This document shows positions 38,301 to 47,300 of a stretch of 64,000 bases of DNA, piece by piece. The position numbers were made by a program. The stretch lies in assembly GCF_988243305.1 (NCBI RefSeq), contig NZ_OZ547136.1. The stretch is one strand, 5' to 3'. The first letter of the stretch is position 1. Each line of letters opens with the position of its first letter.

Positions 38301-41300
38301 TAATGCCGAATGCGTCGTGCATCACGAGAATTTGCCCGTCAGTGACGTTGCCTGCGCCAATGCCAATAACCGGGATCGCCAGTGCTTCGGTAATACGTTT
38401 TGCCAGTTCAACCGGCACGCACTCCAGTACCAGCAGTTGTGCCCCAGCAGCTTCTAAAGCTAATGCATCGCTGAGCAGTCGATCGGCCGCTTCATCGCCG
38501 CGCCCCTGGACTTTGTAGCCACCGAAAATATTCACTGACTGTGGGGTTAAACCTAAGTGACCACAAACAGGAACGGCACGTTCGGTCAGCATTTGTACGG
38601 TTTCTACCAGCCACTCACCGCCCTCAATTTTGACCATGTTGGCACCGGCACGCATGACAGTCGCGGCGTTTTGAAAGGCTTGTTCTGGTGTGGCATACGC
38701 CATAAACGGCAGATCAGCCAGCAGCAGACAGTTTGGCGCACCGCGACGTACAGCAGCAGTGTGGTAGGCGATATCGGCAACGGTAACTGGCAGAGTGGAG
38801 TCATGCCCCTGAACCGTCATGCCCAGTGAATCGCCAACCAGCATGACGTTAAGCCCTTCATCGGCAAACAGTTTTGCGAAGCTATAGTCGTAAGCGGTGA
38901 TGGTCGCGAAACGTTTTTTTTCTTGTTTGCATTTTTGCAATGAAGCAATAGTGGTTGGTTTCATAACGTATCCTGATAAGTAATGTCGTGCTGTCTGGCA
39001 TTTTATCAGTCACATTGGTGGGGGCAATGATTTATCAATTACAGCACCGCCAGATGATGGCGGTGCGGTTAAACCTGTTACTCGTAGGTGACCTGGAATG
39101 TACTGGTAGCCTTAAATCCGCCGGGTTTCACAGTTGCATTACCATCGCGTTTTAATGTTGCCTGAAATTTCAGGTCCTGGGTTGTAGTACGACCGTTGGC
39201 ATTAGGATAATCTGGGTTATAAATTCCATTGTTTTCTCCAGGATCATCTTCAGCATCGTTATAGCTTGATGTCTCATCATTTGGCTTAAGCGTGAAATTT
39301 TGTGAATTTTTGCTGTTGGGTAACCCTTCAATAAGTACTCCGGCACCTTTTGCATCATCGGTTCCTGTCAAAGTATTACCAAGCAACAGAGGATTATTCA
39401 CTCCTACTACATTAGATTTTAGTTTTGTTTTAATACTGCTTATACGAACACAATTTTGCAGCGAGATCTGAAAATTAACAGGTGTTGCAGAATCTGAGGT
39501 GATCTGTCCAACAGTATATTCCCCGAGATTTACGGTTGATCGCGTTACGCTCTCACCCAAAAGGATAGACGTAAAGCATGTTGGCAGTTGGATATTGATG
39601 TCTGTTAAATTAAAATCAATTTTTAGCATCTTAGATGCACTTACATTTGGAACCCCTGGCCCTTCATTTGCGAATGAATACAAATAATCACCAGTATGTT
39701 TTAATTGCACGTTAGTATTTGGAGCAGGGTTAAAACTGCTGTCGGTATAGAATTCCACCGTGGCATCGTGCAAAAGACCTCCGACTGCTTGATACCTGGA
39801 AGTATTACATTGACCTCGTATATAATCACCCGTAATAGAAAATTGTACAGTGTGCCAGCCATCGTCTCCAACGTATATATCTGGAGAGCTTGAGCGAAGT
39901 TCATACGACCAGAATCTATTGAGCATTAACGTATAATATAGACCGGTTACATTAGTTTCATATAATCTGTGCCCATCTGCCATTTTTCCTGAGTCAACCA
40001 TGTTATGCCGGACAGTAATTGGCATACCGCTGGAATTATTTTTTGAAGTACAATATACAAACCCACGGCTACTTGATGTGTCCAGTTCACTCCAATATAA
40101 TTTTATTTTTGCATTGGTCGGTGTGGTGGATGTTGGATTATAAAATACAATATTGTTTACTCCACCAACCGGATAGGAAAATGATATTAGTTTATCGCCT
40201 GATGGGCCATTAAGGTTTCCTACGCCAGCATCGTCACCGACCATAAAAGTAAGATTTTCAGCATTTACATTATTAATGCTGGCTGTGATAATCCATAAAA
40301 AAAGAAAGTATCGGAACGCTGACTTCATCTTATCACTCCTTTGAAAAAATAATATTTGTAGATGCGTTATGTCTGGCATTTATTGATAATAAATATCAAC
40401 TAATACATTGCTGGTGACAAATCCTGCACCAACGGGAAGTAACGGATCAATTTTTTGCATTCGTGTATAAAATTGCCACGATGAATTATTCATGTTTGCA
40501 GAGGCAACTGGCCAGACTGTGCGAAACTGCCCTGTTGGTGACAGCACATTCACTGTGTCCGATGACTGATTATTTTGGCTAAAAATCACGATTCCTACAT
40601 TTTGTGCACCGCCGACATGATTATTGGCGAATATCTGTTGGCTACCAGTGGCCATTACACCACTGACAGGTTTAAATTCTATATGCAACTGGCTTGATGT
40701 TGTGCCAGCGGAGGGGCAATCTTTTACTGTCACAGTAAAGGTCTTTCCGCCTGGATAATTATCTTCCGCACTAACATTACTGGCAAAATATCCCACTCCA
40801 ACAGTGCCAAGGTTAACCAACCCCTGGTTGCTGATTTCGCTTTGACAAGTTCTGTTTTCAACAGTGGTCATAACGTTTAGGCCAATGTTATCCGTGATGG
40901 CTATAGAAAACGTGCTGAATAATAATAAGCTCAGAGTAATGCTTGCAAATATCCCATAATGTAATGATTTCATCTGCATTATTATTATCCTTTTATTCGT
41001 AGGTGAAATTGAATGTCGCAAGTGCTTTAAAATTACCTGCTCTTCCTGAACCTGGTCGGGTTTCGCGAAGTGCTACCGTCATCTCAAGTTCCGGTTTTGT
41101 TAATCCCTCTCCCCAGGAAATCTTTTTAGAACCATCTGGGGGAATAAATTCAGTGTCAGAGGCATTTCGAAGTTTAATCCCCATAGCAATATATTCTGTG
41201 GTGGATGAATTATCTGAAGTTAATGGAGAAATTAAATAGGGTAACTCTACTGAAGGATTCCCTGCCAGCGATGTCGTAATCTTGCCTATGTTACCATCAC

Positions 41301-44300: not shown

Positions 44301-47300
44301 ATGGTGAAAATCTCTTCGCTTTTCGGTGCAACCATTTTTACATTGAGCGGGTTCGACTTACCGCCAGCGATTAACTCTGCACTGTTGAAAGAGACGTAAT
44401 AAGGTGTTGGGTTATATACACTCAGGCCAGACTTCCCTTCAGCCCATTTCCATTTCAGGGCTAATGGTGCTTCAGACGGGTTACCGTTTAATCCTGCCGG
44501 ACGATAGAACAGCTTGATACGGGTACGGAAAGCCAGTTGTAACAGGCTCTGATTCTCTACTTTTGAAGCATCTGGTTTTGGGGGCACTTCCAGCACGTTA
44601 AACCAGAATACGCTTTCTTTATCGCTGGGGAGTACGGTACTGCCGGTATACATCAATTTGATGGTTTGACCGCGTTTAGCATCAATACGTGAAACGGGAG
44701 GTGTTGCCGTAAATGGTACATTAATGCTTCCTGGCTCAGCGTTATCGTCACCGGTATCCAGCCAGCTTTGTACTAACAGGTGGCTATTGCCTTTATTCTC
44801 CAGGCGTACGCTAACGCTTTTTTGATCACTTTTATAAATGACGCGTGTACCGGAAATAACAATATCAGCCATAACAGGCATGCTAAATGCCATACTACTG
44901 GCAACACATAATGCGACAATATTCTTTTTATTTAACAAAATATACCATCCATGACATGAATTGTTTTCAAGACAAGGGGGCGACAATAGGTGTCGCACCC
45001 TTGTAGTAATTTAAATCACCAACGAATAACTTAATTGTAGGTGATGGTGTAAGCTGTGTTGGTTCTTACATAACCAGCCGTTGCTGGTGTTGAGTCGTCT
45101 TCACGAACATAGGAGGCTTTGAAGTCAAAGACTGCAACATTATTGGTTAATGCTTTAGTGTAAGCATCAGATGCGTTATTAATTTTGACTTGTTTAACAG
45201 TGGTGCCGTCAATGTTGTGCAGGGCGATATTCACACCAGATGACGGGGTGGTGATGGACATATCGTTATTCAAAGTGCCACGACTGTTACCAAAGAAAAC
45301 TGAACCGAATGTCAGAGTCGGTTGGCCTCCCGGAGTCGCTTTGCTGCAGTCTACAGTAATGCTAAACGGTTTCGCTTTGGCACCGACAGCAGTTTCAGAT
45401 ACACCAGCGGTAATTTCAGCAACCGTTGCAGTTTGCAGAAGAACCAGGCCATCTTGCTTGCCGCCATCAACTTTTGTTTCACAGGTGTTATCGCTAACCA
45501 AGCCACTGATGTTAATCTGACCACCGTCCATATCAGCAGAAGCAGTACCTGCAACCATTGCCAGCATAAGACCAGACAGGGCAAAACCTAATTTTTTAGA
45601 CATAATAATCCTTGAATTATATTCCATGAGTTTAACTACAATCGGGTGCTTTCAGACAAAGAACCCCGATAGAGAAAAATAGATTGGTTTGTTAATGATG
45701 AATGTGAAGATTTACTGAATGTAACATCTGTTCATCACCAAGTGGGATATTGTGCATATTTAAATTTATATATCCACTTAATTCATCTTTAAGTAAAACT
45801 TAATGTACAAAGCGGGAAAAATATTGTATGTGAGGCGGAAGGTGTTAACGGGGTATATAATATTAATTATGGTTGTAGCTTAGGGAATATATTAATTGCA
45901 ATGGGGTAAGGCTATTTTTCGGAATTTATTTATATTCATGAAATCATTAAATCACCATTTGTTTAATTCATGAAATTTATTTATTTTTAATAAATTTCCT
46001 AATACTGTTCCATCAGGAAACACCAGCTCCGGCGCAATTTCAAACAGCGGCCACAGCATAAATCCACGATTCTTCATATCGTAGTGCGGAACGGTCAGGC
46101 GTTCGGTATTTATTACTTCATTACCAAATAGCATGATGTCGAGATCCAGTGTGCGCGGCCCCCAGCGTTCCGCTTTACGGACGCGACCTTGTTGTAACTC
46201 AATACGTTGTGTGTGGTTGAGTAACTCTTCAGGTGCAAGAGAGGTTTCCAGCGCCACGGCTGCGTTTAAGTAATCGGGTTGATCTTGCGGCCCCAGCGGT
46301 GGGGTGCGGTAAAACGAAGAAACGGCAAGAATGTGGCTTTCAGGGATATCGCCTAATGCTTTCAGGGCAGCATTGACCTGCTCCAGCGGAGAGGCCAGAT
46401 TGCTGCCTATGGCAATATACGCCACTGTCATGCGGTACCCTCACGACGCGGTGCGCGTTTGCGTGGACGACGAGAACGGCGACGCGGTGACGGCTCTTCA
46501 TCCAGCTCGTTGAGCATCCCTTTTTGGTCTGGTGGCGCGGAAACCTGGAACTCACCCCACCATTTCACAAGACGCTGCAGTTCAGCGTTACGTTCAACTT
46601 CAGCTCGCAAGGCCAACAGGTCATAAGCCGCACGGAACTTAGGATGCTCCAGCAGTTTCCAGGCGCGTTTACCCTGACGTCGGGACATACGCAACTGCAA
46701 CTGCCAGATATCGCGGGTTAACGTCGTCAGACGTTTCGGGATTGCCAGTGAACGGCAGGCTTCGTCCAGCACGTCGTTCATCGCCAGCGCGAAAGCGTCG
46801 TGATAGGTCAGGCCACTTTCCTGGGCGATCTTCTGTGCTGTCTCCAGCAGTGGGTACCAGAACATGGCGGCAAACAGGAACGCCGGGTTCACGCGCATAT
46901 CGTTATGGATACGCGTGTCGGTATTCTTCAGCACCTGTTCAATGATCCGCTCCATCGGGCTGTCGCCATTTTCCGTGAAGTAGCGGGTAATGGTCGGGAA
47001 CAGCGGCTGGAACAGGTGATATTCACACAGCAGCTTATAGGTTTCGTAACCGTAGCCCGCTTGCAGCAGTTTCAAAGATTCTTCAAACAGACGTGCCGGT
47101 GGAATATCGTTCAGCAGGGTAGCGAGGCGAGGGATCGGTTCTGCGGTTTCAGGACTGATACGCATACCCAATTTGGCGGCAAAACGTACCGCGCGCAGCA
47201 TCCGTACCGGATCTTCACGGTAGCGCGTTTCCGGGTTACCAATCAGACGGATAACGCCGTCTTTCAGATCCTTCATGCCGCCAACGTAATCACGGACGGT

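Follow-up and report, generated by a model that had tools for sequence, protein, structure and literature searches.

The window analysed here, a stretch of 64,000 nucleotides (nt) of contig NZ_OZ547136.1 from the NCBI RefSeq assembly GCF_988243305.1, is a piece of the Escherichia coli chromosome reaching from secA/mutT to clcA, and it harbours a chaperone-usher fimbrial operon of the Yad type. Six intact genes on the minus strand, encoding a major pilin, a chaperone, an outer-membrane usher, two minor pilins and an adhesin, occupy the interval between the housekeeping genes panB and folK (Table 1), with gene starts following RefSeq for a genome of 99.9% identity. The operon itself is of a known kind and already annotated; its previously unremarked twist is an adaptor pilin that is a chimera of YadL and YadK. 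An initial annotation of the window had noticed only two minor-subunit genes between the usher and adhesin genes, which is borne out by the open reading frames (ORFs) found there (186 amino acids (aa), or 188 from the first ATG, and 199 aa). It had also placed yadM, yadL and yadK between htrE and yadC of K-12, correctly, as comparison with that region shows: K-12 has three minor pilins and not the same two-gene layout.

Operons at the panB-folK site have been classed as Yad, which is core-associated and the orthologue of Salmonella Sta, with locus position and usher phylogeny as the criteria of membership (Wurpel et al. 2013, PMC3559732). The window operon lies between the flanking genes common to the yad loci of K-12, CFT073, EC958, Sakai, other Escherichia and Citrobacter, and its usher groups with HtrE, but in place of seven genes with three minor pilins it has six, with yadL and yadK fused. 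The NCBI curated equivalog cut-offs are exceeded by the usher (HtrE), the chaperone (YadV), the 199-aa pilin (YadK) and the adhesin (YadC); for the major pilin and the YadM-like pilin, the top NCBIfam matches are StaA and StaD, both below the equivalog cut-offs. The sequence hallmarks of a classical chaperone-usher system are present, namely a two-domain PapD-like chaperone and a PapC-like usher (by Pfam), pilins that carry a signal peptide and a flexible N-terminal extension, have two paired cysteines and end in a C-terminal strand with the pattern Tyr-x, and a tip adhesin with a lectin and a pilin domain and no N-terminal extension.

Table 1. Position and content of the yad operon, its parts and its flanking genes (numbering of the whole window; RBS, ribosome-binding site)
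Feature	Coordinates	Strand	Description
panB	38170-38964		flanking gene
Two-domain tip adhesin, YadC type	39078-40328	-	416 aa; NCBIfam PRK09723.1-2, 746 bits against a cut-off of 382; Pfam Fimbrial at residues 264-416
Hybrid minor pilin, whole gene	40380-40979	-	199 aa
yadK-derived 3' part of hybrid gene	40380-40856	-	folded pilin body, residues 42-199; breakpoint interval 40855-40859
yadL-derived 5' part of hybrid gene	40857-40992	-	13-nt spacer and RBS, signal peptide (residues 1-27), donor strand ITDNIGLNVMTTVE (residues 28-41)
Minor pilin, YadM/StaD orthologue	40993-41553	-	186 aa (188 from first ATG); Pfam Fimbrial
Outer-membrane usher, HtrE type	41572-44172	-	866 aa; PapC_N, Usher, PapC_C; NCBIfam PRK09828.1, 1587 bits against a cut-off of 830
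Chaperone, YadV/EcpD type	44207-44941	-	about 244 aa; PapD_N and PapD_C; NCBIfam PRK09926.1, 417 bits against a cut-off of 285
RNA hairpin between major pilin and chaperone genes	44972-45004	-	
Major pilin, YadN/StaA type	45031-45603	-	190 aa; Pfam Fimbrial; 79% identity to K-12 YadN
AT-rich upstream region of major pilin gene	45604-45951	-	30.2% G+C; presumed promoter and H-NS target
folK	45952-46431		flanking gene

A minor pilin with a YadL start and a YadK body

In a cross-comparison of the minor pilins, the 186-aa protein is assigned to YadM, with 53-58% identity against at most 30% to YadL or YadK, and the 199-aa protein is over its full length closest to YadK (48-54%, and at most 30% to YadL). 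Taken in segments, the latter is a hybrid. For its residues 1-25, identity is 40-44% with YadL of the K-12 clade but 16-20% with YadK; for residues 61-199 the balance is the other way, with 52-61% for YadK and 14-25% for YadL. Searched alone, the first 41 aa match only two YadL models, over model positions 1-41 (33 and 27 bits, best E 6e-8), and the remaining 158 aa match the YadK model NF011794 (236 bits, positions 41-200) and no YadL model, the two kinds of match meeting at model position 41. As a control, genuine YadK proteins score 0-27 bits on the YadL models, compared with 50 bits for the whole hybrid.

The DNA changes its affinity at the same place. The 13-nt spacer, the RBS and the codons of the signal peptide and donor strand are 70-78% identical to yadL and 28-40% to yadK at the nucleotide level; the switch falls between GTT GAA and AAC AGA (codons 40-43; 40855-40859), and downstream of it the gene is 66-83% identical to K-12 yadK and about 30% to yadL. 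An AlphaFold2 (AF2) model of the hybrid, with a predicted local distance difference test (pLDDT) value of 81, stays below 50 up to about residue 40 and is well ordered from about residue 42, so that the junction falls where the N-terminal extension ITDNIGLNVMTTVE gives way to the immunoglobulin-like body, which starts near Cys45; this residue, like Cys88, is invariant. Among solved structures, a search by sequence returned for the hybrid only a type 3 fimbrial subunit at E 0.001, and nothing useful for the adhesin either.

The allelic Yad variant with altered minor-subunit composition that the initial annotation had suggested is thus supported by the locus, the equivalog matches and the count of two against three minor pilins, and it can be refined: as the alignments read, yadL is not cleanly deleted but fused with yadK into one chimeric gene. 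Within a limited literature search, this yadL'-'yadK fusion appears to be undescribed.

Haplotype, distribution and selection

The divergence of the operon from K-12 contrasts with that of its flanks. Amino acid identity to the K-12 proteins is 79% for YadN, 79% for YadV, 75% for HtrE, 58% for YadM, 51% for YadK and 50% for YadC, spanning 47-79% across the operon, compared with 98% for PanB and 92% for FolK. Nucleotide divergence climbs within the 3' end of panB and drops again within folK, a profile typical, to judge from the alignments, of an old allele bounded by recombination. Between haplotypes, raised divergence is also seen in the 3' end of panB (38580-39080) and the 3' half of folK (45950-46250), with FolK 88-96% and PanB 96-100% identical in amino acids, from which it follows that the old alleles reach into the flanking housekeeping genes. 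A second refinement of the initial annotation, equally read from these comparisons, is that the whole operon is an old, discrete haplotype, rather than the K-12 operon minus a gene, and that its divergence is not limited to the variable yadC.

The distribution of the haplotype was surveyed in 5,426 complete E. coli genomes, 457 of which (8.4%) carry the whole 7.1-kb region at an identity of at least 99%. The 2.5 kb spanning the minor pilins and the adhesin behave as a discrete allele, being present at 99% or more in 452 genomes and at 95-99% in eight, with the rest at or below about 72% except for one short 85% fragment. An assembly artefact was considered and rejected, as some 450 independent complete genomes show the arrangement with at least 99% identity. 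The variant is common rather than rare, and it has been present in a reference strain, the enteroaggregative E. coli (EAEC) 042 of phylogroup D, since 2010. Strain 042 shares the operon, and four of its six encoded proteins match those of the window exactly; the 190-aa major pilin has the same sequence in the window, 042 and AF40. The core flanks of the window are 98.7% identical to 042 and 97.0-97.5% to references of phylogroups A, B2, E and F, and the carrier frequency of 8.4% matches the share of phylogroup D among complete genomes, 7.3% in PMC13245861. This similarity and frequency point to the phylogroup-D yad haplotype as the identity of the window operon.

Other haplotypes occupy the same site. 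An usher of the K-12/EC958/CFT073 clade (at least 80% nt identity) is found in 3,783 genomes and the O157 Sakai yad type in 421, and a further deep haplotype, represented by E. coli 98202, in about 192; the last has an usher about 77% identical in nucleotides to Sakai's, three minor pilins and a 370-aa adhesin. Among the window, 042 and AF40, the yad haplotype (39078-45951) is 99.7-99.9% identical and the flanks (24000-38500 and 46500-53000) 98.1-98.8%; recombination imports into the flanks, or a recent spread of the allele, are possible reasons. Elsewhere in the window, the 3' part of mrcB and fhuA-fhuC-fhuD-fhuB (53244-61988) are 90.4-92.6% identical to K-12, against 96-98% for neighbouring core genes, and look like another divergent haplotype block, here around the phage and colicin receptor gene fhuA. 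At 36009-37225, the AF40 annotation places rpnC followed by a small 'RpnC/YadD family' ORF, and within this stretch the K-12 alignment breaks and overlaps at 36938-37042.

The adhesin start at 40328, which yields 416 aa, is preceded at 8 nt by AGGAG and aligns with the K-12 start, whereas the first in-frame ATG would give 433 aa; the protein is hence a few residues longer than the 412-aa YadC of K-12, in line with the initial annotation. Its AF2 model (pLDDT 79) matches FimH, LpfD, FocH, CupB6 and PapG over its whole length. Relative to the adhesins of K-12, EC958 and CFT073, the lectin half is 41-43% and the pilin half 55-58% identical (41% and 58% for K-12).

Polymorphism within the haplotype was counted in a small sample of six carriers (the window, 042, AF40, 47538, RIVM_C037166 and GN06156). 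Outside the adhesin, 32 polymorphic codons are synonymous and seven non-synonymous, the hybrid gene contributing two synonymous and no non-synonymous ones, and in the adhesin the counts are three and seven. All seven non-synonymous adhesin changes lie at residues 6-238, one in the signal peptide and the rest in the lectin half. Such a pattern is what codon counts would be expected to show for a working fimbria with a diversifying receptor-binding domain, and the purifying selection makes it probable that the operon is functional.

The region upstream of the major pilin gene, noted as AT-rich in the initial annotation, has a G+C content of 30.2%, compared with 52% in the rest of the window, and is 76-92% identical in nucleotides to the upstream and promoter region of EC958 yadN. 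Together with the 5' end of the major pilin gene it is much closer to EC958 than to either K-12 or CFT073 (43-77%). The remainder of the operon lies at about the same distance from each of these three, and the promoter end therefore looks mosaic. Matches to sigma-70 promoters in this region are weak only (45895-45866 and 45848-45820), and a promoter scan gave 21 promoter-like sites, compared with 16.3 +/- 3.4 in shuffled sequences. A terminator scan revealed no canonical terminator after the adhesin gene. Repression by H-NS has been demonstrated experimentally for the yad promoters of K-12, CFT073 and EC958 (PMC13245861), and by analogy with these alleles the AT-rich promoter of the window allele is probably silenced by H-NS as well, in keeping with the initial annotation. 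Between the major pilin and chaperone genes, the segment 44942-45034 folds with a minimum free energy of -27.7 kcal/mol (z = -3.4, none of 200 shuffles being as stable), and K-12 has a hairpin of other sequence at the same position. The hairpin is probably an intra-operon attenuator or messenger RNA stabiliser that would set the excess of the major subunit.

The chaperone gene has an unusual beginning. An ATT followed by a TTG stands where K-12 has ATG, in all carriers compared (start regions of K-12, 042 and AF40 aligned; window 44894-44998), and the RefSeq annotation is inconsistent, giving 228 aa in AF40, 47538 and RIVM_C037166 and 244 aa in 042 and GN06156; the 228-aa version begins at an internal methionine and has no signal peptide.

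This missing ATG, the crypticity of yad operons under laboratory conditions, their repression by H-NS and the decay of other alleles, such as that of IAI39, would all suit a silent, decaying relic in which the fusion is tolerated and the fibre no longer made. The six genes are nevertheless intact in about 450 genomes, and both the 32 to 7 synonymous bias outside the adhesin and the seven to three excess of non-synonymous changes in the adhesin, confined to its N-terminal part, fit a functional adhesin operon. We consider a relic improbable, albeit the least improbable of the alternatives. The decay in IAI39 affects a K-12-type yad operon (locus L008, 19861-26904), where IS3 has inserted into the adhesin gene, yadM is frameshifted and htrE is interrupted by a stop codon.

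Origin of the fusion

The best explanation of the locus, to which we assign a probability of about 80%, is a phylogroup-D yad haplotype in which yadL and yadK were fused by a deletion on its own branch. An old allele at the fixed panB-folK site, sister to the K-12, EC958 and CFT073 alleles, would have lost some 630 bp between the tandem paralogues yadL and yadK, giving rise to an in-frame hybrid gene. This hybrid keeps the translation signals, signal peptide and N-terminal donor strand of yadL, joined to a yadK body with its acceptor groove. The distance from the start of yadM to the start of yadC is 1225 nt in the window and 1859 nt in K-12, and the difference, 634 nt, compares with the 629 nt predicted for a deletion from codon 42 of yadL to codon 40 of yadK.

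The same end product could have been reached in two steps, by gene conversion of the 5' end of yadL onto yadK and a later, separate loss of yadL. Tandem paralogues do undergo gene conversion, and the data fit one step or two. The two-step route is, however, less parsimonious, as the spacer too is yadL-like and the hybrid stands directly after yadM, in the place of yadL, and the length difference matches a single deletion. Its intermediate, a phylogroup-D-like haplotype with separate yadL and yadK, was found neither in the 5,426 complete genomes nor in a search of 5.8 billion proteins. In that search the hybrid forms one 90% cluster of 379 members, and its next relatives are at most 58% identical, all those inspected having the K-type N-terminus AG[QLM]D[IV]D[LM]xAN[IV]KNSTC. 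A pre-fusion form resembling the phylogroup-D allele is likewise absent from the eight loci of the GTDB species representatives, none of which is closer than 60% except that of K-12-type E. coli. We thus regard the two-step origin as unlikely.

A simpler account still, in which the whole of yadL was deleted and the 199-aa pilin is simply a YadK orthologue that has diverged, draws on the full-length protein, which is most similar to YadK (51-54%) and passes the YadK equivalog cut-off. It is contradicted by the segment-wise model scores, since residues 1-41 and the upstream spacer match yadL and not yadK, and by the N-terminus GQD[IV]DLxA...STC of every other YadK inspected, distant ones included, and is very unlikely to hold.

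The direction of the change can be read from the relatives of the operon. A scan of one genome per GTDB species by usher alignment gave eight loci, all between folK and panB, in E. whittamii, E. albertii, three further Escherichia lineages, K-12-type E. coli, Citrobacter portucalensis and a metagenome-assembled genome of Pseudocitrobacter. Seven of the eight have orthologues of YadM, YadL and YadK, the yadM orthologue of Escherichia sp. MOD1-EC7003 being truncated. In a neighbour-joining tree of the ushers, the window allele is sister to K-12/EC958/CFT073 with 100% bootstrap support, and both outgroup clades have yadL. The M, L, K layout is found in the other haplotypes examined (n = 13; K-12, EC958, CFT073, SCPM-O-B-8794, Sakai, 98202, E. 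albertii, E. whittamii, three further Escherichia lineages, Citrobacter and Pseudocitrobacter), again with the truncated yadM of MOD1-EC7003, and NCBIfam has StaD, StaE and StaF models for the Salmonella counterpart. Since yadL is present in the outgroup clades and Sta has three models, three minor pilins are ancestral and the fusion arose on the phylogroup-D branch; on gene content and usher phylogeny, it is the derived state. The reverse, two ancestral minor pilins with yadL a later duplication in other alleles, could appeal to the distance between the paralogues YadL and YadK (about 23-30% identity) but is highly improbable, being contradicted by the usher tree and gene content, with YadL orthologues in both outgroup clades, Citrobacter and Pseudocitrobacter, by the three Sta models and by the hybrid N-terminus, which is closest to the YadL of the sister clade. 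In MOD1-EC7003 (locus L011, 4504-9272), the truncated yadM-like ORF is accompanied by three ORFs that resemble adhesins (418, 134 and 286 aa) ahead of panB, which suggests a duplication or decay of the adhesin.

Tip assembly and the place of the allele in the Yad family

In fim and pap, the order of the subunits follows the order of the genes. The type 1 (FimF, FimG) and P (PapK, PapE, PapF) adaptors are likewise minor pilins that link an adhesin to a rod by donor-strand exchange, and in neither system do we know, from a limited literature search, of a natural fusion of two adaptor genes.

In chaperone-usher fibres, the N-terminal extension of each subunit, 10-20 residues long, fills in the fold of the more distal subunit added just before it, and subunit order is set by the pairing rates of extensions and grooves together with the usher (PMC3650583). 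Under a fusion by deletion, the fibre of the window allele would still be made by donor-strand exchange, in the order adhesin, hybrid, YadM-like pilin and YadN-like rod, with the L-type strand of the hybrid docking onto the more distal subunit, its K-type groove receiving the next one and the tip one subunit shorter than that of K-12. What the hybrid would do depends on the native tip order. If that order is YadC-YadL-YadK-YadM-YadN, the hybrid would keep both outward interfaces and one link would simply be removed. If it follows the genes (YadC-YadK-YadL-YadM-YadN), the strand of the hybrid would match its own groove, and the protein could be self-complementary and polymerise into a fibrillum like that of PapE. 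Across haplotypes, YadK and YadM share one type of donor strand and YadL has another, which fits the order YadC-YadL-YadK-YadM somewhat better than gene order, though not decisively; were that order true, the likeness would make sense, as both strands would enter paralogous grooves (those of L and K). Conversely, if the fusion worked at once, it would itself indicate the native order YadC-YadL-YadK-YadM instead of the gene-order YadC-YadK-YadL-YadM. Our tentative reading, put forward as a possibility at somewhat less than even odds, is that the hybrid is a natural donor-strand swap that acts as a bypass of one link or as a self-complementary PapE-like unit, giving phylogroup D a differently built tip either way.

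Several points weigh against the explanation preferred here, a deletion fusion yielding a working hybrid adaptor. Under gene order the L strand would enter the K groove, making the hybrid self-complementary and not a simple bridge, by analogy with known fibres; and the proposed tip order is putative, as it is for every Yad allele. With about 50% protein divergence from K-12, the specificities of strands and grooves may have shifted after the fusion, which makes K-12-based reasoning uncertain. The chaperone gene, judging by its lack of an ATG start, may be limited in its expression, and the expression, assembly and adhesion of this allele are predictions from its genes. The phylogroup of the roughly 457 carriers, lastly, is deduced from similarity to 042 and from frequency.

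Set beside its known relatives, the window operon is closest to the Yad operon of K-12 and extraintestinal pathogenic E. coli (yadN-yadV(ecpD)-htrE-yadM-yadL-yadK-yadC), with which it shares the panB-folK site, gene order, strand, domain families, an AT-rich upstream region and a sister usher, but from which it differs in having six genes with yadL and yadK fused instead of seven, in its 47-79% amino acid identity and in its usher (75%). Salmonella Sta (staABCDEFG), considered orthologous and in the same position of the locus (Wurpel et al. 2013, PMC3559732), keeps its three minor pilins StaD, StaE and StaF. The O157:H7 Sakai operon (ECs_0139-0145) and its E. albertii relatives are another deep haplotype with the same site and layout; the Sakai usher is 58% identical to that of the window, the M, L and K pilins are kept, and the 369-aa adhesin shows 25% identity.

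Divergent fimbrial subunits in 042 were mentioned in general terms only by Chaudhuri et al. 2010, and Yad genes were found too different in length to align by Ren 2016. Phylogroups D and E were reported as lacking Yad in PMC13245861, where a genome counted as 'Yad-positive' if its HtrE was at least 80% identical to that of EC958 over at least 80% of its length. Neither the window usher, at 75%, nor that of Sakai, at 60%, reaches this cut-off, which is why phylogroups D and E appeared to be without Yad. That conclusion can now be corrected: phylogroup D has an intact, constrained, divergent Yad operon at the same site, and phylogroup E has another.

The fused-pilin Yad operon reveals no new kind of system, and as a common allele of a known operon with one twist its interest is modest. 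Scores of 'yadL absent' or 'yad negative' in 042-like EAEC and phylogroup-D strains should nonetheless be treated as an allele, not an absence, in typing, pan-genome and virulence studies; we presume that ST69, ST38 and ST405-like strains (ST, sequence type) are the phylogroup-D strains in which the allele is to be expected. For the biology of these fimbriae, the yadL'-'yadK fusion amounts to an experiment of nature on the control of tip subunit order by donor strand and groove, and offers a handle on the architecture of the Yad fibre.

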